35,612 bases of DNA from Monosiga brevicollis MX1 (GCF_000002865.3 NW_001865081.1:109027-144638); one strand, 5' to 3'; shown: positions 8,461 through 35,612, counted from the first letter of the stretch. Made by a program: numbers and translations. Notes: generated from the letters alone by a model not told the origin.

Positions 8461-11400
8461 TTAGTTCTCGCGCGGTATGATGAGTGCCGTAGAAATCCGT
8501 CCCGTAAAGAAGAGACGGTCGTTTTGCGCACCCAGCGCAATGGGATCTGCGCTGGTGCCATACGCCATGCTGCCGGACACCCCACTCTCAAGTATCGTGG
8601 TTCCATCCACGTCGACGCCGATGCGGGCGTGACTAAAGCGAACTTCAAAATCGTGATAATAGCCATCATTCACATGGGTGCCACAAATAGACCCAGCTTG
8701 ACCCGTCGCATAATAATAGACACACAGCCTGTACGTGCAACCAAGCAGTTCAAATAAGTTAAGAATGATTCGGCACGAGGCGTGGGCAAACCAAACCAGT
8801 TGTGATTGGACCCCAGCTCACCTCCGAGATGCACTGCTCAAGTACAACCCCCACAGCAACTGCCCGTCCATCCTGTGACGCGCCACAACAAATCCCAAGT
8901 CGCCTAAAGCTTGTTGAACTAAAAAATGTGCGCACATGGCCACGTGAGTGGCGCCGACGAATGACCGGGCTCAGCAAAGCTTGAGCCTGCACAGTAGGGA
9001 AAATCTGTCAATCAAAGACACACCTGTAGCGCGAAACGTCCATTGTGGTTCCAAACTACGATCCAGCCGGGCCCGCAACGCATCTCCTTGCCCATTGAAC
9101 TCGACGACCCCGTCCCGCAACAACCGTGCGCCTTGATAGTCACTGATAGCCAAGAGATTCCAAGGCACAAGGTCGGTGCTATGGCTAATTCCAGTGTAAA
9201 GCAGAGTTGCTTTCTGATCCACCAGTAGGCCCGTCCCATGCGGACCCACTTGCAAATTATGGAATGTCGCATTAAACGCCGGAAGGCTCGCAAGCGTCAA
9301 CTCGGCCCACTGTGTTCCATTCAAAAAGGCTCGTATCGTTCGGGCGTCTAACACCACGCTCAGTGACCACCAATCATTAAGAGTTGCCGAAAAAGCTGCA
9401 CGCGCAGTGACCACTCGTGCGGGTGCTTGGCGCACAACAAGCATCAAAGCCGAGGCATTGATGGTTTGGACCGTCAGCTCAAACGCAATCGATGACCAAG
9501 TGACTAGAATCAACCACGGCACGAGCAGGATCAGGATTGTAAGCGTTGACGCCACAGAAACTTCCACACCCACACAGACGCAAACACACACGCGCGCATA
9601 CACACACACACACGCACGCACACACACACATCTGAACCGACAATGGAGGGAGTCATCCATCAAGCACCTTGAAACTTGTTCTTACCTAAAGAGGTGGGAC
9701 TGGTGGGCGTCAAGGTTGTCATTGGACGCGCCAAACGACCGAGCATTTGTAGCACACCGCGCCCACTCGCAAGCTGGTGGCCAAATACCATTGGCCCGGG
9801 CGTGCGTAGATACGACTGTGTTCCCAGCAGGAGCGCTGGGCCCGCAAGACTTGTGACACTCCCGCCAGCTGCAGCGGTTGCTTGCGCCAAGCTCAAAACT
9901 TCATTCTCACCAACACCCAGACAAACAGGTGCCTCAAAGCAACACACCTGCTCATCGCCGGTCGTGTGGCAGCCAACCAAAGATCCACAGGGATATTGGC
10001 CGGTGCCAGGGGTCAATACCAAGGAGCCACTGCCATCCGTAGTAAACACCCGCGACGCAGCAAGGCACACGTATCCATCATCGCTGCACTGATCTGCGGA
10101 GCATTCGAGATCCTCACAAAAAGTGCCCGTGTAGCCCAAGGCGCACTGGCACACAAAGACAGCATCGTCAGCGTCATCACCATCGCCATCCATGCATTCA
10201 CCAGCATGAAGACAGGGGTTGTTTTCGCAAGGCGATATGCGTTCTGTGCACAGCGCTCCTCGATAGTTCTCAGAGCAAGCACAACTAAAGTTATGAACGC
10301 CCGTCTCCTCGATACAGACACCATAGGGACCGCACGGATTGGACTCACAATCCGCATCTAATTCCTCGCCACAATAAGGTCCGGCATGAGTCGCAGGACA
10401 AGTACAGTGCACTGCCGTGCCGTTTGTCCAGCAAGTGCCGCCATTCTCGCAGACAACTGAATCGCACAGAGGTATCGTCACGCAAGTTGAGTTGCGCAAT
10501 TGTGTACCAGCCGGGCAAACACATTTGTAGGACCCTGCCAGATTAATGCAGTCAAATCCAGGTGCACAGGGCATGTTCAAAGCTTCACATTCATTGACAT
10601 CAACCCCACACGCTGGGCCTGCCCAGCCAGGGGAGCAGGCGCAGCTGGCCTGATTGTAGCACGCTAAGGTACCCGCAGTGTAACACGCCCCGTCTTGTCC
10701 ACACAGGTTGAAGTCTATGTCACAGTTGGCTCCGGTCAAGAAGGGATTGCTGCATGCTGAGGGGCATGACATGGTGGTTGATTGGCATGGCTTTTCCTCG
10801 ACCTGAGCATTTTCATCACAAGGCACGCCTCCGTTCTCTGCAGACACGATCATGGAACGTCGGCGCTGTCGGAAAAACCCTGTCTCGCAAGTACCCGCAC
10901 AGCCGCCCCACTCACTCCACGAACCATACTCGCAATCCACAGTCCGACCATCAATCGGAAAAGGAAGACAAACTCGATCCGACGTTGCCGTGCACGCAAT
11001 AGCCTCGTATTGACCAGCAGGGCATGGGCCAAAGCCGCAGGACTGGCACAAACGATCTGTCTGCTCGGTTGGTGGTCGCGCTTCAAATTTTAACATTGTG
11101 CAGGTCGTCACATCGGCACATTGTCCTTGAACCACATACTGACCCTCCCTGCAGGACTGAATGAATGCCAACTCCACCGTGCCATTGATGGTGACCGTGT
11201 CCCCAGCTCGCCACCCGAGACCCTGTATATGCAGATGACGCAGGCCAGACAAGGTTTCATCTTCCGAAGGCGGTATAAATGCATTGAAATAGCTCAAAGT
11301 GCGCAACACACGTTGAAACTCGACAGATGGTGATGGGCCATTGAGATGCAGCTCGAGAAGCTCGGGATCATAAACAACTGAGATGTTAGAAGACGCTGTA

Positions 11401-14400
11401 GCCGCGGACAAGGCTTCTTGACTCGCGGAAAGAGGTGGGGCAGCAAAGGGATGGACCGCGACTACGCGCACCGTGATCATGTCCACCACGTCAATGTTTC
11501 CAAGTGTCGCAAAAGGCAGCACAAGAATGGGCTCGCCGCCCACACGAAAGTACCGTGTTACCGTGTGCGAAATTTCCATCAGATCAACATCGAATGGCTC
11601 TGCCCGCTGGATCGACATGATTGTGATGCCGTCTGCGGCCAGCGCACTAGATATATTGGTGCTACCGGACCCGCAACTTGCCACCCGAAGTGCCAAGCAC
11701 CCATCAGTGCTGTTGAGTGAGAGTGGCCATGCCAGGTCAGCTTGAAGGCGCACACCACCCAAAGCCTGAAGTCGTTCCATCACGGTGTCATCAAGAAGCA
11801 GCCATGATGGCCTTGACTTAGTTGGTTGTGTGCAACTGACAATACCCATCTCGGCGGAGTTTGGTGGCAAATAGCCCGTTGGTATGGCTATCGTGAAACG
11901 AACACGCACGTCCATCGCCTCGTTGAAGAATGGCTGCATCACGCTAACATTGGAACCCACCAACACGAGGATTTGTGGCCCATCGAGCAAGTTTGCATTG
12001 ATTTCAGGCAAAACGCTGTAATCTCTGTCGTCGGCAATCACGGCATGGCCTGTCACACGCCAGCCTGGAATTCTCATTGTAGCACTCACATTGGCTACTC
12101 TGAGATCCGGCTCCTCAAAGTTCCCGTTGACTAAAAGCTCGAATTGCCCTTCACCATCCTCCACCGTTGTCATCAAGTCCTGAGTCGTTGGCATGTCGAC
12201 CATCGTTGTGGTGGGAAAGTCAGGGCCGTCGCTAGTTGAAACCTGATATTCACCTGTTGTTGAGTAGAGCACCTCTTCACTATTTGTGGAAGCCTCTGAC
12301 GCGGGCGAGGTCCATTCCAAAGCTTCGGTGGTTGTTGAAACTGCATCAGCAGTGGTGATTTCCTCGCCACCTACAGTCGTCGATACATCGTCGGCTGTGG
12401 AAATCGCACTCTCTCCTGTGGTCAAATCATAGTCCGCATTTGTTGTCGATGCAATCGCATCGGACGTGGTCATAACATCATATTCTGACGTGGTAGCGAT
12501 GAGCGGCGTTGATGTGAGGGTCGTCGGAGGCGCTGAGGCGCTGAAGGTGGCTGATGTCGCTGAACTGGTAGGTGTCGTTGAAGTCGCCAAACTCGACAAG
12601 CTAGGCGAGGTCAACGTGCTGGTCGAGCTGGAGCTAGTCGAGCTAGTTGAACTGGTTGAGCTAGTCGAGCTAGTCGAGCTAGTCGAGCTGGTCGAGCTAG
12701 TCGAGCTGGTTGAGCTAGTCGAGCTGGTTGAGCTGGTCGAGCTGGTCGAGCTAGTCGAGCTAGTCGAGCTGGTCGAGCTAGTCGAGCTGGTCGAGCTAGT
12801 CGAGCTGGTTGAGCTGGTCGAGCTAGTTGAACTGGTTGAACTAGTCGAGCTGGTCGAGCTAGTCGAGCTAGTCGAGCTAGTCGAGCTGGTCGAGCTGGTC
12901 GAGCTGGTCGAGCTAGTCGAGCTGGTTGAGCTGGTCGAGCTAGTTGAACTGGTTGAACTAGTCGAGCTGGTCGAGCTAGTCGAACTAGTCGAGCTAGTTG
13001 AGCTAGTCGAGCTAGTCGAGCTGGTCGAGCTAGTCGAGCTGGTCGAGCTAGTCGAGCTGGTTGAGCTGGTCGAGCTAGTTGAACTGGTTGAACTAGTCGA
13101 GCTGGTCGAGCTAGTCGAGCTAGTCGAGCTGGTTGAGCTAGTCGAGCTGGTCGAGCTGGTCGAGCTAGTTGAACTGGTTGAGCTGGTCGAGCTAGTCGAG
13201 CTAGTCGAGCTGGTCGAGCTAGTTGAACTGGTTGAGCTGGTCGAGCTAGTCGAGCTGGTTGAGCTGGTCGAGCTAGTCGAGCTAGTCGAGCTAGTTGAAC
13301 TGGTTGAGCTAGTCGAGCTAGTCGAGCTAGTCGAGCTGGTCGAGCTAGTCGAGCTGGTTGAGCTAGTCGAGCTGGTTGAGCTGGTCGAGCTAGTTGAACT
13401 AGTCGAGCTAGTTGAGCTAGTCGAGCTAGTTGAACTGGTCGAGCTAGTCGAGCTAGTCGAGCTAGTTGAGCTAGTTGAGCTAGTCGAGCTAGTCGAGCTA
13501 GTCGAGCTAGTTGAAGTAGTCGAGCTAGTTGAACTAGTTGAACTAGTCGAGCTAGTTGAGCTAGTCGAACTAGTCGAGCTAGTTGAGCTAGTCGAGCTAG
13601 TCGAGCTAGTTGAACTGGTTGAGCTGGTTGAACTGGTTGAGCTGGTTGAGCTGGTCGAGCTCGAGCTAGTCGAGCTGGTCGAGCTTGTCGAGCTAGTTGA
13701 GCTAGTTGAGCTGGTCGAGCTAGTTGAGCTGGTCGAGCTGGTCGAAGTCGAAGAGCTAGTTGAGGTCGAAGAGCTTGTGGAACTCGAACTCATCAAGACC
13801 TCAGTTGTACTTTCAACCGTTGTGCCAGGTTGGCTGCTCGACCATGAATCAACATCCGTAGAAGTCACAACCGGCTCAGCCGTAGACTGAATTGTCGTCT
13901 CGATAAGTGATGTTGACACCATAGTGCCATCTGTCGTCAAATACACGTCAGGGGTCTCGGGTTGACCAGAGGTGCCGGCATTGGTAGTCGTGTGAACGGT
14001 GGGCTCCACTGTCGTTTTCAAACCGAGTGTCGTTACGAAAGCTTCGGTGGAAGTAAAACTCGTGGTCGTTGTCGACTCTGCCTGCGCGGTAGGCTCTGTC
14101 GTCAGTAAAGAGCCATCTGTGGTCACAACAGTAAGTGGAGTGGACGTAGAGGTAGAAGTAGACGTCGACGTCGACGTCGACGTGACAAGAGTTTGGGCTG
14201 TTGTCAATGGCAGCTCAGGCGTACTTGTCAGAGGAACATCAGCCGTGGTGCTCTCGAGGCTCTCGGGCGTACTTGTCAGAGGAACATCGGCCGTGGTGCT
14301 CTCGAGGCTCTCGGGCGTACTTGTCAGAGGAACATCGGCCGTGGTGCTCTCGAACTTCTCGGGCGTACTTGTCAGAGGAACATCGGCCGTGGTGCTCTCG

Positions 14401-17400
14401 AGGTGCTCGGACGTACTTGTCAAAGGGACATCGGCCGTGGTGCTCTCAAGGCTCTCGGGCGTACTTGTCAAAGGAACATCGGCGGTGGTGCTCTCGAAGT
14501 GCTCGGGCGTACTTGTCAAAGGAACATCGGCGGTGGTGCTCTCGAGGTTCTCGGGCGTACTTGTCAGAGGAACATCGGCGGTGGTGCTCTCGAGGCTCTC
14601 GGGCGTACTTGTCAGAGGAACATCGGCCGTGGTGCTCTCGAGGTTCTCGGGCGTACTTGTCAGAGGAACATCGGCCGTGGTGCTCTCGAGGCTCTCGGGC
14701 GTACTTGTCAAAGGGACATCGGCCGTGGTGCTCTCGAGGCTCTCGGGCGTACTTGTCAAAGGGACATCGGCCGTGGTGCTCTCGAAGTGCTCGGGCGTAC
14801 TTGTCAAAGGAACATCGGCGGTGGTGCTCTCGAGGCTCTCGAGCGTACTTGTCAAAGGGACATCGGCCGTGGTGCTCTCGAGGCTTTCGGGCGTACTTGT
14901 CAAAGGGACATCGGCCGTGGTCATATCAGCACGTATGGTGGGCGAAGAGGTTGTTTTCACATCTTTCACCGTTGTGTCGGCCGCCGTTGTGTCGGCCACT
15001 GTCGTGGCGGCCACCGTCGTGTCGGCCACCGTCGTGTCGGCCACCGTCGTTGAAAATGAGTGAGCTGTAGAGCTGATCTTGAGTGTAGCGGACATCGTGC
15101 TGCTTGGCAGTGACATTGTGATTGAAGCACTGGTTGATGTAGCTGGAGTTGTTGTAAAGGTGCTTGTCGAAGTCGTAGTAGTCGAGGAACGCGTCGAAGT
15201 CGTGGAGGTCGAGGTATCTGTCGAAGTCGTAGTAGTCGAGGTACGTATCGATGTGGTAGTAGCCGAGGAACTTGTCGATGTCGTGGAGGTACTCGTCGTT
15301 GTAGTCGAGGTACTCTTCGAAGTCGTTGTAGTCGAGGTACGTATCGATGTGGTAGTAGCCGAAGAACTTGTCGATGTCGTGGAGGTACTCGTCGTTGTAG
15401 TCGAGGTACTCGTCGAAGTCGTGGAGGTACTCGTCAAAGTCGTGGAGATACTCGTCGAAGTCGTAGTAGTTGAGGTACTTGTCGAAGTCGTAGTAGTCGA
15501 GGTACGTATCGATGTGGTAGTAGCCGAGGAACTTGTCGATGTCGTGGAGGTACTCGTCGTTGTAGTCGAGGTACTCGTCGAAGTCGTGGAGATACTCGTC
15601 GAAGTCGTAGTAGTTGAGGTACTTGTCGAAGTCGTTGTAGTCAAGGTACTTGTCGATATGGTAGTAGTCGAGGTACTTGTCGAAGTCGTAGTAGTCGAGG
15701 TACGTGTCGAAGTCGTAGTAGTCGAGGTACTTGACGTTGTGGTGGAGGTTGAAGGAGAAGCAGTTGTGGAATTGAGCTGAATGCTAGTTTCAGTTGTCGT
15801 ATGCAAAAGTTTGCTCGATGTCGTCTCGGCTGTGCTCAGTTCAGCAGTCGTTTCCGCTCCGATGGTACTCTCAGCGGTGCTTGAACCAGGCGTCGTCTCC
15901 ACCTCGGCCGTGCTCGGTTCAGCGGTCGTCACCCCATCGACAGTAGTAGCACCAGGCGTCGTCTCCACCTCCGCAGTAGTAGCACCAGGTGTTGTCTCGC
16001 TCTCGACAGTGCTTGATTCAGCAGTCGTCTCTACCTCGGCCGTGCTCGGCTCAGCAGTCGTATCCCCATTGACAGTAGTAGCACCAGGTGTCGTCTCTCT
16101 CTCGACAGTGCTTGATTCAGATGTCGTCGCCACCTCCGCAGTCGTTGCACCAGGTGTCGTCTCCACCTCGGCCGTGCTCGGCTCAGCAGTCGTATCCCCA
16201 TTGACAGTAGTAGCACCAGGTGTCGTCTCTCTCTCGACAGTGCTTGATTCAGATGTCGTCGCCACCTCCGCAGTAGTAGCACCAGGTGTTGTCTCGCTCT
16301 CGACAGTGCTTGATTCAGCAGTCGTCTCCACCTCGGCCGTGCTCGGCTCAGCAGTCGTATCCCCATTGACAGTAGTAGCACCAGGTGTCGTCCTCATACT
16401 CTCGACAGTGCTTGAGTTTCACCAGGTGTCGTCTCCACCTCCGCGGTCGTTGCACCAGGTGTCGTCTCCACCTCGGCCGTGCTCGGCTCAGCAGTCGTAT
16501 CCCCATTGACAGTAGTAGCACCAGGTGTCGTCTCTCTCTCGACAGTGCTTGATTCAGATGTCGTCGCCACCTCCGCAGTCGTTGCACCAGGTGTCGTCTC
16601 GCTCTCGACAGTGCTTGATTCAGCAGTCGTCTCCACCTCGGCCGTGCTCGGCTCAGCAGTCGTTTCTACCTCGGCCGTGCTCGGCTCAGCGGTCGTCACC
16701 CCATCGACAGTACTTGATTCAGCAGTTGTCTCCACCTCCGCAGTCGTTGCACCAGGTGTCGTCTCACCCTCGACAGTGCTCGGCTCAGCGGTCGTTCCTA
16801 CGTCGGCCGTGCTCGGCTCAGCGGTCGTTCCTACGTCGGCCGTGCTCGGCTCAGCGGTCGTCACCACATCGACAGTACTTGATTCGGGTGTTGTCTCGCT
16901 CTCGACAGTGCTTGATTCAGCAGTCGTTTCCACCTCGACTGTGCTCGGCCCAGCGGTCGTTTCCATCTCGACCGTACTTGATTCAGCGGCCGTCTCGCTC
17001 TCGCTGATACTTGAGTCAGCGGTCGTCTTCACTTCGGCGGTACTCTCGACGGTACTTGAACTATGTGTCGTCTCGCTCTCGCCGGTGTTTGCGTCAATGG
17101 CTGTTTCCACCACGGTGGTGCTCAATTCGACGGTCGTCTCCACCTGCGCGGTAGTTGCACCAGGTGTCGTCTCCACCTCGGCCGTGCTTGAGTCAATTGT
17201 CGTCTTCACTTCGGCGGTGCTTGAACCAGGAGGTGTCGTCCCTATCTCGGCGGTGCTTGAGTCAACTGTTGTTTCCATCTCGGCGGTGCTTGAGTCAACT
17301 GTTGTTTCCATCTCGGCGGTGCTCGGGTCAGCAGTCGTTGCCAGCCCGTCAGTCGCTGAATTGGCAGTCATCTGTATTCCGGCGAGGCTGGGCTGTACGG

Positions 17401-17764
17401 ACGGAGCTGCCGTCGATGCCGCAAGCGCACGAGGTGCTCGGTGAAAAGCATCCTCGTTCGCACCCTGAGCGGCAGCAAGCCCAAAGGCCGAGAGTACCAG
17501 AAAAAGGATTGCGGTCGTGGCAAAGGACGCCCACTTGCTGTGCTTGCCTGAGACGTGGCTCAGCCCTGCTCTTCTATCCAGAGGTACGCGCTCTAGCAAA
17601 AGAAGAAAAAAAATCAACAAGGAAAAGAGTGGAGGCAATCATGAGAGGAGGAGGGAAAGTGGTTGCTTGATGCCAAGACGAGTGGCACAAGAAGCATGAC
17701 AGCGTGAACATGCGTTTTAAAACCTACCAGCCATTGTGAACATGGATGGGAATGACACGGGCAT
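8461..17764 (-). CDS. Giant secreted mucin-like adhesion/matrix protein: signal peptide, long Ser/Thr/Glu repeat stalk, NGNFE module, calsyntenin-C/cadherin-like domain, TNFR-like Cys repeats, TSP1, about 5-6 EGF domains and two LamG-like domains
   Basis: Exon 1 is 17764-17728 (alternative in-frame ATGs at 17743 and 17734; donor G|gtagg). Exon 2 is 17592-9686, with a frameshift near 16400. Later exons are 9503-9024, 8918-8822 and 8728-8461 (ends IIPREN*). Motifs: hydrophobic ATTAILFLVLSAFGLAAA; TSP1 DCEYGSWSEWGGCAGTC...RQRRR; Ca-EGF DVNECE; LamG VNDGYYHDFEV...VDVDG...IALGAQ...FFTGRIS. Confidence 0.82.
12620..13790 (-). repeat. 9-bp tandem repeat (gagctagtc)n encoding (TSS)n
   Basis: More than 1.1 kb of a 9-nt unit with wobble variants; the + strand reads (VEL)n. 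Confidence 0.95.
14215..14925 (-). repeat. 48-bp minisatellite, 15 copies, encoding TTADVPLTSTPESLES
   Basis: gtacttgtca recurs every 48 nt from 14221 to 14893. Confidence 0.95.
15165..15750 (-). repeat. Degenerate Thr/Ser repeats (STSTTTT units with larger duplications)
   Basis: Recurrent gtcgaagtcgtagtagtcgaggtac blocks; SSSATTTSIRTSTTTT occurs three times. Confidence 0.85.
15820..17340 (-). repeat. Roughly 36-bp (12-aa) acidic mucin repeats with higher-order duplication (TTAEPSTAEVE / TTPGATTAEVE / TTAESSTVESE)
   Basis: Seen in both the 16394-17638 and 9660-16397 ORFs. Confidence 0.9.
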
Positions 17765-24120: not shown

Positions 24121-27100
24121 GCAGCCTTTCAAGAGTGCTTGTCCACCAATGTCTGGAAACGCGACGTCAAGCTTGGCAACGACGTGGTCGTCGTCCTCCG
24201 CAACAAGCTCTCCTACGTCCTTTACCAAGCTGGCTCCCCAGAACCCAAGGTAGGCTCACAGCACCCGTTGCGCAGCACTCGACCCATGCGAGCTCCAACC
24301 TCTGGTCCACGTGACCAGCCCTTATCCCGTCGCCAACGTCCTTCAGATTGTCAAGCGAGGATGTGAAGACAACTTTGATCAAGGTAAGGTTCACACCCCA
24401 AAAGTGTCTTGGAAAAAAAAAAAAAAAAGCTGACAGCCCAACACGAACTCACGGCCGCGCTCACATCCGATTTTGATTGGCACAGGTGAAGATCTGGCCG
24501 AGCCCATCGACCACCTGATCCTTGTCGTTAGCGGACCCGTCCCAGAACATCCCAACCTGGCCCGTCTCGGCTTTCGTGCCTCCAGTGATACGGTTCGGAT
24601 CCCGCTTCCTCCATTTGTGTTCAGTCAATCTGCCATGTCCTGCGAAACGACCTTACCATGCAAGTGCCGTTTAGGTCGGCTCGCTGGTGGATGCCGTTGA
24701 TGCCATGCGATACAACCGTCGCGAACTCATCGCTTCGCATTTTGAAAGTAAGCCGCAATCCCCAAGTACCCGTGTCTCCCTCGTCCGCGCACCTGCCGCC
24801 TTCATGATCATGTCCGATGTACTTCCACGCCAGTGACAACGGATAGCAAGAGCACGGGTCGAGTCGAACTGCTACCGGTCATCTGGCAACACGACATGGC
24901 CGCCGTCCGTGACGCCACCGAGTACGCACCAGCCCATGACCATTCACCTTGAGACGCACCCAGACTTTGTTTTTACAAGCCCCTCTTTGCTTTGTCGCGC
25001 TCAGGATCATGAACATGCTCTCGCTCCCCACGGCTGTGCGCATCCGCCATTTTCTCAAAGAGGCCCTCCTTGACGCCGTCACCTATGCCGTCGAGGTGTG
25101 TCACGCCCCATCTGCTTATGAAGCCATCCCTCAAGTTGAGGCACGCAAATGCTCGGGTTGCACAATCGCTCACACAATGTTCTCGGCGCATCTTTGATTC
25201 TCCAGCGCCAAGCTTGCGTCGATAAAGTGGCTGCAGCAGTGGCCGAGACCATCCACCGCTTCCGTGCCAACAATCCCGCCTTTACCGGCTCCGTCAACGT
25301 CATGGGTCATGGCCTAGGCGGGGTGGCCATGTTTGATCTTCTCGCAGCTCAAGGTGCGCCAAGGTGTTTAGATGCCAGCCATGAGAAGGCCGATGCATAC
25401 AACCTCATCCATTATTGCGCGAAATAACAACGTGTGGGCGTGTCAGGTCAAGAGAACAAGACCGAGGTGGCTGCAGTGGATGCCGCAGTTGTGGGCGATG
25501 ACGCAACCCCTGCTCCGATTGAGACAGACCCCAGCACGGAGGAGGAAGCCGTGCAGCTCCCTGCTCACCTGGCGGACGATGTGACGCTCGAGGCCCTGCT
25601 GAAAGAACACGAATTTGAGGATCTGTTGCCCCAGCTCCAGGAGGAGGGCATTGACCTCGAGTCGTTTGCCCAGCTCAACACTACTGATATGAAGGACCTG
25701 GGGCTGAACATGGGTCGTCGCAAGAAACTGGAAAAGGGTGAGCGGCTCATCTTTCCGCAAATGGGCCGTGTGGCCCACTCGTTCGTGTTGGTTTCTTGGC
25801 TGCTCTGGCCGGCTGCCTCATCCTGACCATATTGTCCCCCCCTCCTTTCCCAAATGTGATAGTGGTTGAAGACTTTGCGCAACGACAGGCCCAGAAGGAG
25901 GCCTATTTGGTATGTAGTCGAGGCGTCTGAGTGCGTCGCCGACGTTGTTTTGTTTGCGCGCATGATCAAATCCTTGTGTCGGTATTCGTGACCGATGGAC
26001 AGGCACTCGCAGTTTCATTTCGATGGTCATAATAGGAAAAAGCCCGTCAGGCGGCACTGGTGCAGCAGCAGGAACGAGCCTTGCAGCAGCGTCGGGCTCA
26101 GGCGGAGGCCGCAGAAGCCAAGGCCAAGGTGCGCATCTCCTTTCTTCTTGTTCATATAGTGTCATGCTACTTTGTTATCTGGCTCATTGACTTTGCTGTG
26201 GTTGCGGTGAGCTTTGTAGGCCGCTGCAGCCAAGTTGCAGCAGGCGCAGCGAGAGGCCCACACGGTCCAATTTCCTGTTTTGGAAGAGCAACTGGCCGCG
26301 CTCTTTCTGTGTGGTGCTCCCGTTGGTGCGTATGCCTCATATGGGATGCCTCAAACTGACCAAGGCTTGGCACTGCGCTCACATTATGGTGCGTGTCTGG
26401 GGGTGTGAATAGGCTGGGCCCTTGCACAGCGTGTGGCGGCTGACCTGACAGCCGAGAGTCGATTGAAGACGTGCGAGCGTGTGTACAATGTGTTTCATCC
26501 ATACGACCCAATGGCATATCGCTTGGAGCCGCTGGTCGACGAGACCATGGTCGAGCTTCCCCCAGCACAAGTGGCGCACGCCAATCGTTCTGGCCGACGA
26601 CTGCACAAGGGTGTGTCCTTGCCTTGTGCGCGTTTCTGTTTGTTTTGAATTTGGGGTTTGTTTGTTTTTTGTGGAACACTTTCTACATGACCCATGCTTG
26701 GCTCGAGTCGAGCCAGATTTTCAATCGGTCTCACTTGATGCCCCACTGGCACCACGGTGTCGATGCTGTCGGTAGAACTGCAAACATACCTGCGTGGTGC
26801 GGGACGCGACCTACGCCAAGAGTTGACATCCTTTGCGGGCAGTGCCGTGACGTCCTTTAGCGAAGCCCTGCGCAAGCGCACCGGCAAAGGTAAGCACAAG
26901 ACTGGTCATACTTGCGGGAGCTAAGCGATTGGACCAGGGAAAGCTTGGGGTGGGCTGACAGCCTTGACGTGTATACGTTTGGCCGGGGTGGCATGCTTAG
27001 GCTTGGAGGACTACGGTGTCAACGCCAGCAACTTGAAGCAACTCGTGTCCAGCACTGGTTAGTCGAGATGCGCACTGCCTTGCTATGTGGGCCGAATTCG

Positions 27101-27357
27101 AACCGTTGGTGTGGGATGCCTGCTTGTTGTGGATGATCAGACGTTGTGGGTGCGTAGATACAAGCATGCTGGCAGAAGATGGGTCCACAAGGAGCGTTTC
27201 GCAGCTGAATCCCGAGCGGCGGCTGGACTACATGCTTCAGGAAGCGCCAACCGAGGCAGTGTCGCAATCCCTCTTTGCCTTGGATGCTCACACGGCGTAT
27301 TGGAACTCGGAGGATATCGTGCTGTTTATGCTCGAGAACGTTTACGGCCATGAATAA
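24121..27357 (+). CDS. SEC23IP/DDHD2-like intracellular phospholipase A1 family protein with SAM and DDHD domains; 5' exons unresolved; catalytic Ser absent
   Basis: Spliced exons give IVKRG, IDHLILVVSG, GRVELLPVIW, RIRHFLKEALLD, FRANNPAFTGSVNVMGHGLGGVAMFDLL, a SAM domain (LQEEGIDLESFAQLNTTDMKDLGLNMGRRKKL), YNVFHPYDPMAYRLEPL and RRLDYMLQE...AHTAYWNSED. These occur in the same order as in SEC23IP/DDHD2. Confidence 0.88.
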
Positions 27358-27634
27358 AGGCCTTGAATTTTACAGTAAATTGGTTGGCGGTGACATGAGA
27401 TGCTTGCTTCTGAGCTTTCGTTTGTTTTATGGCTTTGTCTGCACCTGATTGGCTGCATCTTCAGAGCATTGATGTTGTAAACGGCACCGTGTCGGTGGCC
27501 CTTATAATTTTCAAAGTTTTCAAATGAGAGGACAAAATTTGAACGTGGGAAGGCTCACAAGTCAACCTCGCGCGTGTTTGTGTGCCTTGCAAGACCTTGG
27601 CAGACTGTCAGGCCTTATGCGCCTTTGACTACCG

Positions 27635-28130
27635 TCGTCTCTTCTTGTTGTAGGCCTGCGCTTGGACACACGTCGCACTTTCCCTGATTCTAGAGCTATT
27701 CCAACGGTGTGCCTGGTCTGGTCACTGTGAATATTTTCCAACCGCAGTTGGTACGATCGACCTCAGAAAAATCTTGTTCCGTCCCGACAAACGCCGGTTG
27801 AATCCCTCGAAAAAAGTTTTTTTTTTTTTTTTTTGACCGCCTCTACAGTCGTCGAGGTATCAAGGCAACCGTGTGCTGGAAGCAGTCATGAAACTCAGGA
27901 TTCCGAGAGACCGTTGTCGTCGATACAGTGCTCCAATGATTGCCTGAATGGCTTATGATGATGCCTGGGCAGCTGCCCTGGGGTGATAAGCTTGTCACTA
28001 CTGTTGTTTCCTTTGTTGTGACACCTGCGGTCGGGCACGGGTTGCACTTTCCCCATCCTCGGGCTTGAGCGGTGCACCTGGTCTGGTCACTGTGGATGCT
28101 TGCCAACCGCGGCTGGTTCAATTGACTTCA
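27635..28130 (+). repeat. Diverged direct repeat pair of about 130 bp (about 27635-27765 and 28005-28130)
   Basis: ggtgtgcctggtctggtcactgtgaatattttccaaccgcagttggt versus ggtgcacctggtctggtcactgtggatgcttgccaaccgcggctggt; both are preceded by ttgttgt...cctgcg...gcactttccc. Confidence 0.7.
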
Positions 28131-29278
28131 AGAGGCCGATCTCCCTTTCTGCTTCTGGCAGGGGTGTTGAATGATGTGGGCGCTCTGAGGGGATCAAGGC
28201 GTCGACGGTCGGGCTTTCCGACTACAGAAGGGGTCAAAAACTGGCATGCGCCGCACCGTGCCCCATCTTCAAACCTCCTCTTCGTCGTGGCCAGAGCGCG
28301 CCTTGCCTCCCTCTGCACCTTACCATCTCGCTTCCCATGCAAACCTCAACCCGCGTCCAAAGGGAACGAGCAGCATCATTGGCCCTTTTTTCATCGCTTC
28401 CAATGACTGCCACGGCAATGAACCTAAAGCTGACTGGCTCGCCGTCAGGAATGGTCGCTCGCATCCGGGCAAGGAGATGAGATTGATATGACTGGAGAGG
28501 CAGTTAGCCAAACGGGCTTGTCAAGCCATGGCACAGTACACGTTGTACGTACAGGCCCCAGATATGTGGTGCTCTAGAAGCTGCTCGTAACAGGCGAGCT
28601 GTCATGCCAGGCAAAGGGGCAGTCCACGTTGGTACGGACACAAGCTTGACGGCGCTTTGGAACATTTGCTTGTAAGACTGTTGTTGTTTTGACTTTTTCT
28701 CCGAAAATAAAAAATTAAAAAAGAAGAAAAAAGGTGTAAACGTGTGTGTGTGTGTTCTTCGCATTTTTCTCGTTCTTTGGCTTTTGCCATTTGCCTTTGA
28801 CTTCTTCTTCTTCTTCCCCTCTTTGGCATCGGTCTCGATCTCGATATCAGCTGACTTGACGTGTCTTGCTTTGTGTGTGTGTGTGTGTGTGACGACTGAT
28901 CGCTTGTGCTTGGTACGCTTTCCTGGTTGGGGCCTCAGAACGTTTTGATTGAAAGCACTGCTGCCATTTGTTTTGCTTTCAACTGAAGTTGGCCTCACTG
29001 ATCTTGCCTCGCAGTCGACAACGTGCGGTTGGGCAACCAAGTCCACCGGTCCTCGCAACTGTCAACCAAGTTATTTTTTTCCAGGTGAGTCGTTTGTTGC
29101 ATCAGGCAGAGAAGAGCAAAGAGCCCGCTGACCGGCTGCCGTTTTGGAAACGGCGCTGTTGGATCCCAGTCCGAATTCTGGGTTGTCAGACGAGTTGTAC
29201 TTGGAGGGGGCTCATGAGATTGGAGAAGCAAGCAAAGCGGTTTGAAGTGGATGGTGAATAGAGAGAGATACCGTTACC

Positions 29279-32200
29279 ATGAGTGATGATGGAGAGCAGC
29301 TGTGGATGGCGTGTTGTTCATCAGATCCACAAAAGGCGCTGCAGCTGGTGACCAGTTGGGACCAACAACGCATTCGAGATGCTGCCCAATACAAAGATAG
29401 GGTACGTATGCTGTTTGATATGATGTTGTGTGCTATTGGTTACACTTTGAAAGTGTCACTGGATGGGGTGACGTTATGGTATAACATGGGACATATACTG
29501 CATGTTTGCATCCTCCCACAGGATGGCTATACACCACTGCACTGGGCCTGCCTTTACGGTCATGTCAAGGTGGTGGAGATGCTGTTGAAGCACGGTGCTG
29601 ATGCTAAAGCCAAGTCCAGCGTCAGTACAGTACCTCCCTCTTCCCCCCCTTTAACCCCCCTATGATGGTGCACCTGTACCCCATGATGATGATGATGATG
29701 ATGACTGCTGTACCTGTACGTCATGCTGATGCATCATCCCACAGTATGGCTATACACCACTGCACTATGCCTGCCGTAAGGGTGATGTCAAGGTGGTGGA
29801 GATGCTGTTGAAGCACGGTGCTGATACTGAAGCCAAGAACAGGGTCAGTACAGTACCTCCCTCTTCTCCCCTTTACCCCTCTATGATGGTGCACCCGTAC
29901 CCCATGATGATGATGATGATGATGATGATGCTGTACCTGTACGTCATGCTGATGCATCATCCCACAGTTTGGCGAAACACCACTGCACGAGGCCTGCGGT
30001 AACGGTTATGTCAAGGTGGTGGAGATGCTGTTGAAGCACGGTGCTGATGCTAAAGCCAAGAAAAACGTCAGTACAGTACCTCCCTCTTCCCCCCCTTTAC
30101 CCCTCTGACTGCTGCTCCTGCTCCCGCTGCCCCGTCGCCTTTGCCCCCGTCCCTCCTCTCCGCTACACCCTGCCCACCCGTGCGCGCCCGTTCTCCACCC
30201 CTGGCTCCTTTGCTTCTTTCCCGCTATCCCTCTTCTTCCCCCGTTTTGCGTCCGCCCGTTGTCGGTGCTCCCCGCGCCCCACTTGTCTCTTCCGCCTGCC
30301 GTTTTCGCTCTCCCCTTTTTCTGATCCATCCCCAACCCCTTGCCATCACGCCTCTGCCTCCCTCGCTCGCCCAAGCGGCTCTCGGTGACCGTGCCTTGAC
30401 TTTTGCCCCCGGCACACGCGCCGTATCCTTTTTTTTTTTTCCTCTCTCCAAGCACGCCTCCGTTCGGACCCCTGCTACCTGCCCGCACCATTTGCACACC
30501 ACTCGCGCGTCTGGCGTCTTCGGCCCACTTCAAAGCATTGTCACCTCGCCTTTGTTATGAGAAAGCAAATGCACGTCGCCCAACTCAACCCTCGCGTCGT
30601 TGCCCACCTCACACGCTTCAACCACATGTTTTCAGAGTGGCAAAACGCCCCTCGATGTCGGACGTCAAGAAGGACATGGTGACAAGCTGGAACCCGTGTT
30701 TGCTGCCCACGAGGCTCACCTATCACAACCACCCGCGCCCCTCGCTCCGCCTGCACCTATCACTCCGCCCACGCCGGCACCGCCCCCCGCCTGGCTGCCG
30801 CCTCTGCCCACCACCCCCACCCTCGAGGTGAGCCTGCTCCCCCATCTTGTTTTCCCAATGCATTTGCCACCCCAATCCCCACGGCCTCACCCAACCTAAT
30901 CACGACCAATGGCACCACACAACCCTCCATCAGACCACGGCCTCTGTTGTGGTGGCGGTGGATACTTGGCTTAGGCCCCTCTTGCCTANNNNNNNNNNNN
31001 NNNNNNNNNNNNNNNNNNNNNNNNNNNNNNNNNNNNNNNNNNNNNNNNNNNNNNNNNNNNNNNNNNNNNNNNNNNNNNNNNNNNNNNNNNNNNNNNNNNN
31101 NNNNNNNNNNNNNNNNNNNNNNNNNNNNNNNNNNNNNNNNNNNNNNNNNNNNNNNNGTCAAACAAAACCCCAATCTTGCAACGGTCGTTGCTTCAATCCG
31201 CAAAAACATCGATGAAGCTCGACCAGAGTTTCCCGTCATGAATTGGGCTGCCTTCCAGACGACTACCACCCAGGCTCTCAACACACTCGACCAGGCACTG
31301 GCAGCGCCCGAAGCGTTAAGCAACCGCTTGAAGCAATTGGACCCCAACACTGACAACCTAGAATCAGTGCTGCAAGAGCTGCACGGTGTCACTGCTGGTT
31401 TTGAGCTGCAGCCGGTGCTTCTCGAGCTTCAGGACATGCTGGCAGCGTGCCCCGCTCCACCCACCACGCCAGTGATCGCGCCCAAGAAGCCACCCACCGA
31501 CCTAGCAGCGGCCCTGAGCAAAGTCATCGTTCTGAGCGGCGTGGAACCCAAGCGTCAGGAGCTGCTCACCAGCGCCAACAGCGACCTCAAGCGCCTGGTG
31601 CTGGCCTTGATCGATGCCCTGGGCGCCGTGGCAAAAGCGGGAACAACCGACACAATTCATCGCGTGGAAACGCTACGGCAGTGCGCACAATGCGTGAATG
31701 CAAGTGCACCGCCTCCAGCCGAGACATTGCCCGAAGCCTGGGAGGAGCTGTGCCAAGCTCACGAGAAGCTGAGCCTGCTCGAGCAAAATGGTCTTGAGCA
31801 AATTTCTCAGTGGCAACCACCTCCAGACTACGAGCATCAGAATTGGTACTTGGCGTTTGTGCACCACGAGTCGCAAGCTCTGCTGCAGCAGTTACAAGAC
31901 ATGATCGACTGGCAGGCCACGACGCTCTCCATGTTGGACTCGTGCATGAGGCACGTGGACAGCTTGACCCAAGGCGTCGATGATGAATCGGTTGCTGCCC
32001 ACGAGGAACTGACCAAGGTGGAGAAAGAGATGCAAGGTATCAGTGCGGCGTTGCAGCTGGTGCCTGAAGATATGCGTCCAAGCCTCGAACACAAGCTCCA
32101 AGAGAAGAAGGAACGGCTGGATATCTTGCGACAACAGTTATCAGATCAGCCACACGTGGACCACGTCGCAGAGCTCGCCCAGCTGCTGCATCAGCACTTT

Positions 32201-34129
32201 CCAGCGCTGCTGGTTTTTCTGCACCCTGAACAGAGCACGATGGGAGCGCGCCTCCGCACTGTGCTTGGGCCCGACCTTCCAGCTAGCCTGATCTTGGAGG
32301 CCATGACCGAAGTAGACCAGGGTTTGACGCTCTCCAGCCTGGGCCAGCTCTCTCTCCAATACAACCAAAATCACAAGGTGTACAAAGCCCGCGCAGCACT
32401 GCCGAATCTTCCTGAGCAAGATTTGGCTGTGAAGGAGTATGCACTTGCTGAGCAACACAAACAAGATCAGTGTCGGACGTTTCTCCGCGAACTGCGCGCC
32501 ATGCGCCAGCTTGAGCACCCTCACATCATTCCGGTCCTTGGCGCGCTCGTGGACGTACACAGTGGCCACCCCAGCGCCTACTTGGTGCAGCCATGGTGTA
32601 CCCAGGGGGATCTGCAGCAGTGGCTCGGTAGGGCGCGCCATCTGGCCACCTCGACCGTGGTTGCGGGTCTGATGACCCAGTTGCGCACGGCCCTGGCGTT
32701 TATGCATAGCAAGGGCCTGGTGCATCGGGATGTCAAGCTGAGCAACGTCATGCTGGATGGCGAGGAGGACCAACCTGTTGTGCGGCTCGGTGATTTCGAC
32801 ATTGCCAAGGCTGCCGCTGAAGCCACCATGCTACCATGCACGGCCACCGCATCGTCGGGCACGGCAGGCTATGTAGCACCGGAGGTGCTATTTGGAATGG
32901 GTCGTGTGGGCGCACGCCCGGCACAGGATGCCTTTTCCTTTGGCTGCGTTCTCTACAACACGTACATGTTCCCACAAACGGTGCCACCTGCTCACCCACG
33001 AGTTGATGAGGTTGTGGATCGATGCAGCTGGAGCATACGAGCAGGAGAGTCTGACTGCGACTTTACGCACTTGGCAACTGAGGTGAGCGATAGTGCGATA
33101 CCTATTGACCCACAACGAAGAACCAACCGCACCTCTCGTGTGGAAACTTACTTTGGTTTCTCTGATGCAGATGTGCGATTCGTCGAGTAATTTGTACAAG
33201 GAAACGCGAGCCTTGCTTGCAACAGATCCAAAGCAACGGCCAAGCCTTTTCAGCGCCAAGCAGATTTCGCAGCAGCCTGTCTTGGCCCAAGTCGGGCCAG
33301 CCATTGATGTCTTGCGCGACGCGCCCGAGCTCATGTCAGAGGTGCGTCGCTTGCGTTTTTTGTGCTTTTGTTTTCTCTCTCTCTCTCTCTCTTCCGCGAA
33401 TCGTCTGATTTGAACCTATTGGGTGGCTAGGTGGGTGAGCTACTGAAGCAGCTGAACACCGATGGGCGGGGGCCAGCGAATATCACAGTGCAACGGGTAG
33501 ATCGCGTGCACAACCCCGTGCTGTGGGAGCGCTACAGCGCCAAGCGACGCGAGATGTTGCATCGTATCAAAAATCAAGAGCACTATGATCAACTCCAAAC
33601 GGCCACATCGGATGCGCCCTCGGGCTCTCCAGCTCTGCTTCGCGATACATCCTGTCAAGAGCGCCTGTTGCTCCACGGCATCGGCCCTGACACAATGTTG
33701 CGCGACAAGATTGTGCGCCTGGGCCTTGACTATCGCTTTGCCGGCAACAGTGCCGGCCACCGATTTGGTCTCGGTGTTTACTTGGCGGACCATCCCGGCA
33801 AGGTAGGGCAGCGCTGGCTGTCAATCTCGCCTGTTTACCCAAGTGCTGTGGTGCTGACGCAATGTGCTTACACTTGATCTCAGAGTCATCAGTACGCCGG
33901 TGCCGGACCCAACGGCGAACGAATGCTCGTCATCACGCGAGCACTCCTGGGCCATGCCCATGTCCATCCATCGCCTCCTTCTGGTGCGCTGGCACCTCCG
34001 CTCCTGCCCAATGCGCCCAACAACGAGCGGTGCGTCGGACAACATCGACCATCTGTTGCATGTTGTCTCTGTCCGCCTCCTGATCTGACTGTTATGTTGC
34101 GCCGGCCATTTTACTTTTGCAGGTATGAC
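29279..34129 (+). CDS. Ankyrin repeat / Pro-rich / coiled-coil / Ser-Thr-type protein kinase / PARP catalytic domain fusion; 3' end lies in a gap
   Basis: Exons: 29279-29401, 29522-29620, 29745-29843, 29968-30066, 30636-30827, gap-33082, 33171-33341, 33431-33802, 33884-34029, 34123-gap. Ankyrin: GxTPLHx[16 protein letters not shown]. Kinase: [85 protein letters not shown]. The kinase-PARP join is directly in frame; the ankyrin-kinase join crosses a 168-nt gap. Confidence 0.85.
29512..30106 (+). repeat. Tandem 223-bp cassettes (99-bp ankyrin exon plus 124-bp intron containing (GAT)n)
   Basis: Exon starts at 29522, 29745 and 29968; each following intron begins gtcagtacagtacctccctcttc; acceptors end cccacag. 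Confidence 0.95.
30989..31156. other. Assembly gap inside gene 5
   Basis: N run. Confidence 1.
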
Positions 34130-34512
34130 NNNNNNNNNNNNNNNNNNNNNNNNNNNNNNNNNNNNNNNNNNNNNNNNNNNNNNNNNNNNNNNNNNNNNNN
34201 NNNNNNNNNNNNNNNNNNNNNNNNNNNNNNNNNNNNNNNNNNNNNNNNNNNNNNNNNNNNNNNNNNNNNNNNNNNNNNNNNNNNNNNNNNNNNNNNNNNN
34301 NNNNNNNNNNNNNNNNNNNNNNNNNNNNNNNNNNNNNNNNNNNNNNNNNNNNNNNNNNNNNNNNNNNNNNNNNNNNNNNNNNNNNNNNNNNNNNNNNNNN
34401 NNNNNNNNNNNNNNNNNNNNNNNNNNNNNNNNNNNNNNNNNNNNNNNNNNNNNNNNNNNNNNNNNNNNNNNNNNNNNNNNNNNNNNNNNNNNNNNNNNNN
34501 NNNNNNNNNNNN
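34130..34512. other. Assembly gap covering the PARP C-terminus
   Basis: N run. Confidence 1.
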
Positions 34513-34919
34513 TTTCACATGCTGTGTAGCCTGACTGCTGGCTGTCTCTGAATAAACGGCATACCTTTCCATACATGGATCAGGAAATCAGCATGCTGAT
34601 TCTCATCTATTTGCTGCTGAGCAATCTTCTGGAGCACAGGCTGAGCAGCTGGCTGGAGAAGCGGGGCAGGCTGGACACGCCCGACGACTATGCTGTATTT
34701 CGTCGACAAACGACAACGTACCTGTATCGGCCAACGCTTGGGGTACGCCGCGACCTTCTGGACGACGGCGGTTGTAATCCATCGACTCTTGGCCGAGACG
34801 ACCAGCGCCCTTGGCAGCCTATTCCACGATCAAGCTTGGCACTCTGGAGACACGGCCGAGCAAATGACCATGTGCAAACCAAGGTATCGTCTCGACTGAT
34901 GCATTTATTGTGTGGCTAG

Positions 34920-35612
34920 GTGGCTGAACTCCTCAGCAGCTGAGCACGGACAGGCAAGGACCAAGCAACATTGCAGTGCAGCGGGTGGAGCGTGTGCAGA
35001 ACCCCATGCTGTGGGAACGGTACAGCAGCAAGCGACGGGAGATGTGGTACCGCCTCACAAGTCAGGAGCACTATATTCGACTTGTAACCACCACCTCGGA
35101 TGTGCTCTCGGGCTGTCCAGCTTTGCTTCGAGAGACAACCTGTCAAGAGCACTGGCTGCATCACGCCCGAGCGATTTCTGCTGGACAAGATTGTGCGCTT
35201 TGGCCTCGATCATCGCTTTGCTGGTAGCCGCGCGAGCCACCGGTTTTGATTTCGGTGTTTACTTGGCCGACCATTTTTGGCAAGGTGGTGTTTGAAATTG
35301 CGACTGGTTTGATCGGAATGCGCCGCTGTTCTGATGCCAGATGCGCTTTTGTGTATGACTTTAGAGTCATCATCAGTACTCCTACGGTGGACTCGATGGC
35401 GAGCGCATGCTCGTTGTCACGCGAGTTTTGTTGGGTCATGCCTACGTCCATGAATCACCTCCTTGTCTAGCACTGGCCCCACCGCTCTTGCCAGACGCAC
35501 CCGACAATGAGCGGTGCGTTGGACAGACCCGACTTTGGCACGTTGCATGTTGGTTTTGAGCCGCGAGTACTTCTGGCTGGCTTTGGACTTGATATGTGCT
35601 TTTGCTACAGAT
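34920..35612 (+). pseudogene. Frameshifted tandem duplicate of the PARP exons of gene 5
   Basis: Same gtggctag|gtgg acceptor; encodes VQRVERVQNPMLWERYSSKRREM and FGVYLADH; keeps the same intron positions (ggcaag|gt, ag|agtcatca, gagcg|gtgcgt); carries several indels. Confidence 0.8.

Follow-up and report, generated by a model that had tools for sequence, protein, structure and literature searches.

Many ankyrin repeat cassettes in the choanoflagellate Monosiga brevicollis likely form, by analogy with candidate immune receptors of other lineages, a repertoire of variable sensors coupled to a protein kinase and an ADP-ribosylating enzyme. The gene that led us to this repertoire lies on the plus strand of the window, by which we mean the whole analyzed stretch of 35,612 nucleotides from strain MX1. 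It is apparently intact and encodes an N-terminal cap, three internal ankyrin repeats, a C-terminal cap, a helical region, a kinase and a PARP domain, with an open frame in each visible exon. A sequence-only reading of the same DNA had described the cassettes correctly and overlooked the caps, the kinase and the PARP domain of the same gene.

The three internal repeats are encoded by cassette exons of 99 nt in phase 0 (29522..29620, 29745..29843 and 29968..30066, plus strand), with one repeat per in-frame exon and AG/GT boundaries. They are separated by two cassette introns of 124 nt, located at 29621..29744, where an ATG microsatellite is found, and at 29844..29967. All three exons match the ankyrin profile of Pfam above its cut-off as 33-aa repeats (E=2.5e-12, 1.3e-12 and 6.1e-10, respectively). 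The proposed organization of three 99-bp phase-0 exons in 223-bp units was reproduced in its coordinates, boundaries and translations, and TRF reports a period of 223 with 2.7 copies and 90% matches. The introns are nearly identical, as had been claimed, differing by 4 substitutions and short indels within a C-run and the ATG microsatellite. The window holds three cassettes only, and a window search for spare or inverted repeat exons in the introns of the locus revealed none beyond these three matches.

Comparison of the three exons recovered the previously given distances of 12 nt (repeat 1 versus 2) and 14 nt (1 versus 3), and 13 nt between repeats 2 and 3. The three pairs differ in 9, 8 and 10 codons (1v2, 1v3 and 2v3), none of them synonymously, and 3, 5 and 3 of these codons carry more than one change, so that both the absence of silent change and the multiple changes per codon were seen again. 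The statement that framework codons are identical holds for the 23 of 33 codons that are the same in all three exons and fails for codons 14, 28, 29 and 32, which vary along with codons 1, 3, 8, 11, 12 and 33. These four codons, including the A/T replacement at codon 28 and the K/E replacement at codon 29, are outside the sets randomized in designed libraries. Each pair of repeats is identical at 23-25 of 33 amino acids (70-76%), and at 86-88% on the nucleotide level.

The remaining parts of the gene, all on the plus strand, surround the cassettes. The first coding exon (29279..29401), assigned by translation and its GT donor, encodes an N-terminal capping repeat of 41 aa in phase 0 and is followed by an intron (29402..29521) of a type unlike the cassette introns, with the acceptor end alone in common. 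Downstream of the third cassette, a long intron (30067..30635), the first ~40 nt of which match the cassette intron, precedes a phase-0 exon of 64 aa for the C-terminal capping repeat and a Pro-rich linker (30636..30827; 72-87% to paralog C-caps by tblastn). A large exon (30934..33082) encodes an all-helical region of ~400 aa and then the protein kinase domain (Pfam Pkinase E=1.2e-34). Its frame is open, and we infer from the paralogs that it runs unbroken across the N gap at 30989-31156. The kinase Lys, HRD and DFD motifs are present; a Gly-rich loop and a DFG motif are the norm in kinases, and here the loop is missing and DFD replaces DFG. The kinase C-terminal end and a linker occupy the next exon (33171..33341; 71-97% to paralogs by tblastn, open frame), and the PARP-type ADP-ribosyltransferase domain extends over 33431..34129 (exons 33431-33802, 33884-34029 and 34123 onward). 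The last PARP exon enters the N gap at 34130-34512, and the Pfam match (E=3.4e-5) is under the curated cut-off for the visible part alone; the His and Tyr motifs are present, and the Glu position falls in the gap. A second PARP copy at 34906..35525, with 71% nucleotide identity to 33417-34041, is degenerate and frameshifted, as seen from the frame changes in tblastn. Pfam scans of the window exons found Ank, kinase and PARP only, with no SAM domain in the gene.

In the AlphaFold model of a paralog, P0004, the first exon, two repeats and the cap exon are confidently modeled (pLDDT 85-96, residues 1-130), the N-cap as helices (pLDDT 85-92). The capped stack overlays whole DARPin chains with TM (target) values of 0.85-0.88 over ~130 columns and an rmsd of 2.1-2.6 A for the top five matches. 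This overlay of caps and repeats points to the layout N-cap, repeats, C-cap, and in the model of this paralog the two caps close the ankyrin stack. Helix 1 of the model carries codons 8, 11 and 12, and the hairpin loop carries codons 32-33, 1 and 3. These positions agree with the accessible text of two studies (PMC4308713, PMC4986451) in putting the variable sites on the ankyrin binding face, as had been proposed, the assignment of codons to that face being taken from the two studies and not from a contact calculation. The kinase and PARP portions of the P0004 model are of low confidence, as is the model of the helical region (pLDDT 52.9). A wide fold search with the helical region returned generic helical hairpins only (best Z 9.9 over 71 residues), and a comparison of the paralog's helical region with the ESM Atlas gave no usable match, a result that bears neither on absence nor on novelty.

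Protein searches with the helical and kinase exon, each of which scored about 8,000 best candidates, yielded 35 matches, 24 of them Monosiga brevicollis MX1 proteins (58-96% identity) and the other 11 generic kinases (30-39%). Every close relative (24/24) is from M. brevicollis, and in these searches the paralog family is confined to one species. The N-cap query gave 18 representatives, and the 10 that were looked up comprise five more M. brevicollis ankyrin proteins, whose gene models lack a kinase, and five ENA fragments. The window gene agrees exon for exon with its paralogs, and 4 of the 24 family gene models, like 3 of the 5 further proteins, read through the cassette intron. Whole loci have been duplicated, with flanking remnants in common and some copies broken; many of the 24 gene models are partial, and those with the ankyrin motif have 1-7 hits to it. 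Catalytic motifs of the effectors are retained in most family models (kinase Lys in 20, HRD in 22 and DFD in 20 of 24; PARP His in 17, Tyr in 17 and Glu in 16). For the PARP domain of paralog P0149, the matching structures are those of PARP12/15/14 (best E=1.3e-9), and its Glu aligns with the third position of the H-Y-E/I/L triad of PARP12. PARP12, PARP14 and PARP15 act in antiviral defence.

NACHT and NB-ARC domains are absent from the Pfam scans of the window exons and from the annotations of the 24 paralogs. The protein query with the ankyrin region gave 965 matches, the best 120 of which are generic long ankyrin proteins. The framework pattern had no exact match in the JGI metagenomes, and none of three candidate viral contigs was confirmed. 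A weak match to the helical region (27%) in the JGI locus L001 was dismissed as chance, as this locus is a bacterial integrase/GAPDH-like region.

The prevalence of amino-acid-changing over silent variation, on which the sequence-only reading relied, is borne out by the window counts, by simulation and by many-copy alignments of both proteins and DNA. In simulations on a star tree with 20 minimum changes, dN/dS=1 and kappa of 1-4 (20,000 runs), a silent codon difference was lacking in 0.5-1.8% of runs, changes were limited to at most 10 codons in 0.2-0.4%, and both features coincided in at most 0.02%. The window pattern is thus real and beyond chance. The NG86 counts of Nd/Sd are 12/0, 13.5/0.5 and 13/0 per pair (Fisher p 0.02-0.03, the pairs being non-independent). 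For copies 1 and 2, 7 of the 21 nt in library-randomized codons are different, versus 4 of 120 in the introns (p=1.4e-4). Over the cassettes, transversions outnumber transitions (16 versus 5), and multi-base changes are frequent. As far as sequence comparison can speak to it, the counting tests and the simulation support diversifying selection on the binding-face codons.

For a larger alignment, 45 motif hits were collected from 28 family proteins; the 35 hits with no more than 3 framework mismatches were retained and the other 10 discarded, and together with the three repeats of the window the retained hits make 30 distinct repeats. Variation in such an alignment, suggested earlier as a check, proved uneven and is concentrated at codons 1, 3, 8, 11, 12 and 33. 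Entropy peaks at codon 11 (3.17 bits), followed by codons 8 (3.16), 1 (3.04), 33 (2.93), 3 (2.66) and 12 (2.45), and its mean is 2.68 bits at the seven library-randomized positions versus 0.58 elsewhere and 0.29 in the kinase core. Five of the six positions in the classic DARPin set vary in the window (hypergeometric p=0.005). The ANK-N5C library randomizes positions 2, 3, 5, 10, 13 and 33 according to the available portion of PMC4308713; these equal exon codons 33, 1, 3, 8, 11 and 31, and again 5 of 6 vary in the window, in keeping with the suggested correspondence to DARPin-randomized sites. The overlap is supporting and not decisive, because the library-randomized positions are in any case those with the greatest variability among ankyrin repeats in nature (PMC4308713, same portion).

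The proposal of exon shuffling or gene conversion accords with a common cassette pool that bears signs of recombination. Framework identity is 0.790 both within and between genes, an equality that the filter of at most 3 mismatches itself favors. Of 10 site pairs, 8 have all four allele combinations (automatic gene models, protein level), as would be expected from recombination, and recurrent mutation could contribute to them. The protein P0002 shares 96% identity with the window gene in the kinase and 73% in the best repeat. Gene pairs with more similar kinases also tend to have more similar best repeats (rho 0.36 for 45 non-independent pairs; 0.42 for the hypervariable sites), and thus the repeats are not freely shuffled. 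These patterns indirectly support recombination among the cassettes.

Of the public sequencing runs listed, X1-X3, X7 and X17-X19 were compared with the locus at the contig level. X1 and X2 were taken as DNA, since their contigs cover the introns. At exon 3, the 597 contig pieces of X1 contain 21 alleles with a share of at least 10% in the assessed span, codons 3-31. Sixteen of them fall in codons 3, 8, 11, 12 and 14, the same codons that dominate in X17, X18 and X19, and the other five are non-synonymous (codons 15, 23, 26, 28 and 29). No allele of at least 10% was found at the framework silent sites of this exon in X1, and the one allele of 21 that leaves the amino acid of the reference codon unchanged belongs to hypervariable codon 3 (binomial p=0.026). 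In the stretch with the least inflation of depth (29975-30006), the mean heterozygosity at the 11 nt of codons 3, 8, 11 and 12 is 0.45, and the interleaved framework codons have no silent allele of at least 10% in 4 of 4 runs. Of 40 alleles listed (at least 42 in all), 5 are synonymous versus 23.7% expected (p=0.06). Contig-based allele shares are distorted in the constant zone, where the summed depth is up to 38,000 versus 3,000-4,300, and this could hide silent alleles in codons 15-31. The ratio of summed variable-zone depth to single-contig depth, roughly 230-440, is not a copy number and is therefore read as probably hundreds alone; at this rough level, the species probably has a few hundred cassettes. 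The shares of cassette alleles differ between runs. Two marine metagenomes contain the cassette in 31 and 53 pieces, mostly below 95% identity, with loose ends like the window introns and the same variable codons, which suggests wild relatives.

The run X7, for which there is no RNA record, was taken as RNA from its intron depth of 6 versus thousands on exons and from joints without introns. All nine repeat-to-repeat joints listed for it (12 of 68 rows) fit clean splicing exactly, with junction letters all other than those of the window locus, and an N-cap-to-repeat spliced joint of exact length comes from a paralog; given these exact lengths, the paralogs are spliced as predicted. No exon-skipping joint with the letters of the locus itself occurs among the 15 of 138 joints listed.

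The best of the 24 runs listed contains 0.46 of the sampled words of the locus. At 29433, 29452-29453 and 30631 all X1 and X2 contigs differ from the window letter, which X3 does have at 30631. Any one of four causes could account for the word share and the absent letters, namely filtering, errors of the reference close to the gaps, strain drift and real turnover. The exact three-cassette order of the window copy is therefore unconfirmed, and the existence of the cassette pool is not in doubt.

We consider it probable that the cassettes come from a large M. brevicollis pool and build a variable sensor, diversified by selection and recombination, that would switch on the kinase and the PARP domain. 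Units of 223 bp, exon plus intron, would recombine by unequal crossing-over and gene conversion, homogenizing the framework and the introns and altering the number and order of repeats, and diversifying selection would keep the binding-face codons different. The capped stack would then sense a variable ligand, probably a foreign or parasite protein, whose binding would release the kinase and the ADP-ribosyltransferase as a defence or stress output. The sensing of a ligand and the defence role are suggested by analogy and by the PARP subfamily match. Alternatively, the repeats could be young segmental duplicates with a purified framework and neutrally drifting surface codons, and no recognition repertoire. 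The duplicated loci with common flanking remnants and broken copies, the many partial gene models and the tolerance of ankyrin surfaces to change (accessible text of PMC4308713) are in line with such relaxed drift. However, a neutral rate is capped at the silent or intron rate, yet the hypervariable codons are about tenfold above the introns (7/21 vs 4/120), heterozygosity at codons 3, 8, 11 and 12 is 0.45 with neighboring silent alleles below 10% in 4 runs, transversions dominate (16 vs 5) and multi-base changes are frequent; we therefore regard drift as unlikely. The three cassettes might also be a mosaic of paralogous reads, given the N gaps that flank the gene, the low word share and the missing reference letters. 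This is very improbable, since four runs have the same cassette, intron and hypervariable sites in contigs assembled independently, several family gene models (4/24) and further proteins (3/5) read through the cassette intron, and the exon structure equals that of the paralogs; mis-assembly would at most affect the local cassette order.

Active targeted diversification beyond selection, by ongoing recombination of cassettes at mitosis or by hypermutation within clonal cultures, would fit the best run having 0.46 of the window's words, the several window letters missing from X1 and X2 contigs and the variation of cassette allele shares by run. We find it doubtful, as contig filtering, reference errors near N gaps and strain drift explain these facts equally well, and reading of the window's long ORFs (10 pieces Pfam-scanned) recognized no reverse transcriptase or recombinase. 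Adenine-specific mutagenesis of the DGR type was rejected: 14 adenines are invariant among the 69 framework nucleotides, and 9 of 19 variable sites are without an A allele (10 of 19 have one). The repertoire could instead be made mainly at the RNA level, by skipping among in-frame cassettes as in the Ectocarpus ROCO genes, for which the available sections of PMC11378527 provide an exon-skipping precedent. All cassettes are of 99 nt and in phase 0, so any skip stays in frame, and one N-cap joint is listed as 21 nt shorter than the standard join. Nevertheless, the arrays are short (3 repeats here, 1-7 motif hits per gene model), so that skipping adds few forms, and the 15 of 138 joints listed include no locus-specific skipping joint, which leaves this mechanism rather improbable. 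An anticipatory antibody-like repertoire, in which a few hundred cassettes would be recombined during clonal growth into capped binders that trigger the kinase and ADP-ribosylation effectors, is speculative and has, in our opinion, a small chance of being correct; the hint in its favor is that recent runs contain the cassette pool and lack part of the reference sequence of the locus.

The evolutionary mode, homogenized repeats with a hypervariable binding face, is already known from brown-algal and fungal proteins that are candidates for a receptor role in immunity. The parallels drawn by the sequence-only reading are appropriate, as the accessible parts of PMC3341825, PMC11378527 and PMC4986451 describe similar modes. 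The ROCO-LRR and NB-ARC-TPR proteins of Ectocarpus are regarded as candidate receptors for pathogens (Zambounis et al., PMC3341825; Teng et al., PMC11378527; sections available). Like them, the M. brevicollis gene has one repeat per exon and an exon length that is a multiple of three, and it shares with them diversifying selection on the binding face, repeats that vary between near-identical paralogs and, by analogy, a candidate immune role. It differs in having ankyrin repeats and not LRR or TPR, a kinase and PARP in place of ROC-COR or NB-ARC, a 223-bp unit in which intron and exon are homogenized together, exons devoted to the caps and a unicellular host, and in the absence of spare or inverted repeat exons from the introns of the locus (3 matches only). 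Among fungal NLRs, the Podospora HNWD family and Pa_3_8560 have ANK, TPR or WD40 repeats of high internal conservation, HIC (Dyrka et al., PMC4986451; PMC13449251; accessible parts), and their ankyrins show concerted evolution and positive selection on the inner helix and beta-hairpin (PMC4986451, same part). Near-identical ankyrin repeats that evolve in concert under positive selection, a proposed exchange between paralogs and a sensor fused to an enzymatic effector are common to these proteins and the gene described here. In contrast, this gene has no NACHT or NB-ARC, its sensor is N-terminal and its repeats are exon-encoded, and its arrays are short compared with those of Podospora (7 to >16 ANK repeats). 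Its repeats were not assigned to the fungal HIC class, as their identity of 70-76% is under the threshold of at least 85% aa over 100 aa (accessible part of PMC4986451). Lacking ROC-COR, NB-ARC and NACHT, the gene belongs to neither the Ectocarpus-type receptors nor the fungal HIC NLRs.

In the combination of an N-cap, 33-aa internal repeats and a C-cap with a constant framework, the sensor resembles DARPins and ANK-N5C (PMC4308713, PMC8683736, available portions). Similarly, the hairpin and helix-1 positions are variable, and the predicted paralog structure overlays DARPin chains. Unlike DARPins, it is natural and fused to enzymes, and its binding is putative. Compared with the ANK-N5C library, there is extra variation at library positions 1, 16, 30 and 31, and position 33 is much less variable. 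Tankyrase has the layout ANK-SAM-PARP, and RNase L the layout ANK-pseudokinase-RNase. The ankyrin sensor is N-terminal to the PARP domain as in tankyrase, and N-terminal to a kinase fold and an enzymatic effector as in RNase L. To our knowledge, the repeats of tankyrase and RNase L are not known as hypervariable cassettes, and in contrast to tankyrase the PARP domain here is closest to PARP12/15/14. Tankyrase, of PARP clade 4, contains 15-18 ankyrin repeats, SAM and PARP (PMC2964712, accessible part); the window gene, with 3 repeats, a kinase and no SAM, is not a tankyrase. Ankyrin and PARP proteins are known to occur in M. brevicollis, and the available text of PMC4245714 mentions that alone. 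In PMC8592570, the main text as available has no mention of ankyrin or PARP, and supplement 1 contains no match in an expression table. No published description of the cassette family was found in a literature search that covered few subscription journals.

In the present gene, this mode is combined with another kind of repeat, exon-plus-intron cassettes, cap exons, kinase-PARP effectors and a choanoflagellate host. M. brevicollis is amenable to genetic work and has already served as a model for the study of immunity (PMC8592570). With the cassette family, one can test if the single-celled relatives of animals maintain diverse repertoires for recognition, and against what, and also if the repeats undergo reshuffling inside a clonal line. 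The family is the counterpart in nature of engineered DARPin libraries and reveals the positions and residues favored by selection. If the reading of recombination during clonal growth were true, the family would amount to a system of variable immune receptors built from cassettes in a unicellular sister lineage of animals.

Between the ankyrin repeats and the catalytic domains of the ankyrin gene lies an all-helical region of about 400 amino acids (31157-32350). Protein searches with this region revealed no close relative outside M. brevicollis, and fold searches gave no informative match. The kinase that follows (32370-33082) keeps the Lys and HRD motifs, lacks the Gly-rich loop, and has DFD in place of DFG, a replacement retained in 20 of the 24 paralog models. 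The same N-cap and cassettes, without kinase or PARP, are also found in five other M. brevicollis gene models (P0157, P0159, P0161, P0163, and P0169). These five may encode stand-alone binders or serve as cassette reservoirs, or the models may be incomplete.

On the 3' side, a short ORF (34530-34919) matches the tails of three paralogs, P0002, P0003, and P0005, and in the P0002 gene model the tail runs on into a DEAD-type helicase (PF00270). This ORF is possibly a mobile-element remnant that was co-duplicated with the ankyrin gene. A second, frameshifted PARP copy (34906-35525) shows 71% identity to the first one, and tails resembling the frameshifted copy are also present in paralogs P0003 and P0005. 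On the 5' side, the untranslated region (29000-29278) is multi-copy too, and is spliced in paralogs, as seen from the joint 29059-29223 in run X7, which behaves as RNA. Further upstream are a direct repeat with 73% identity (27628-27765 and 27997-28130) and a SAM-domain gene (Pfam SAM_2, E=5.3e-5), whose extent, 25428-27360, is an estimate from the sequence.

The window also contains two very large genes, 1305-6995 on the forward strand and 9660-17638 on the reverse strand, which, judged by eye from their ORFs, encode Ser/Thr-rich mucin-like tandem repeats with units of 9, 33, and 48 nt. By the same inspection, the former has FG-GAP-like repeats, and the latter EGF/thrombospondin-like modules.

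Comparison of positions 29200-30980 with public runs demonstrated that a fraction of 0.46 of the sampled words is present in the best-matching run, and that at several intron positions the window's letter occurs in no contig aligned there from X1 or X2, two runs behaving as DNA. The low word share and the missing intron letters could be explained by filtering, an error in the reference, or strain drift, or the locus may have turned over. Two marine metagenomes, X18 and X19, contain cassettes related to the segment 29945-30090. They vary at the same codons, and their intron ends match as well. These metagenome cassettes offer a way into the diversity of wild populations.
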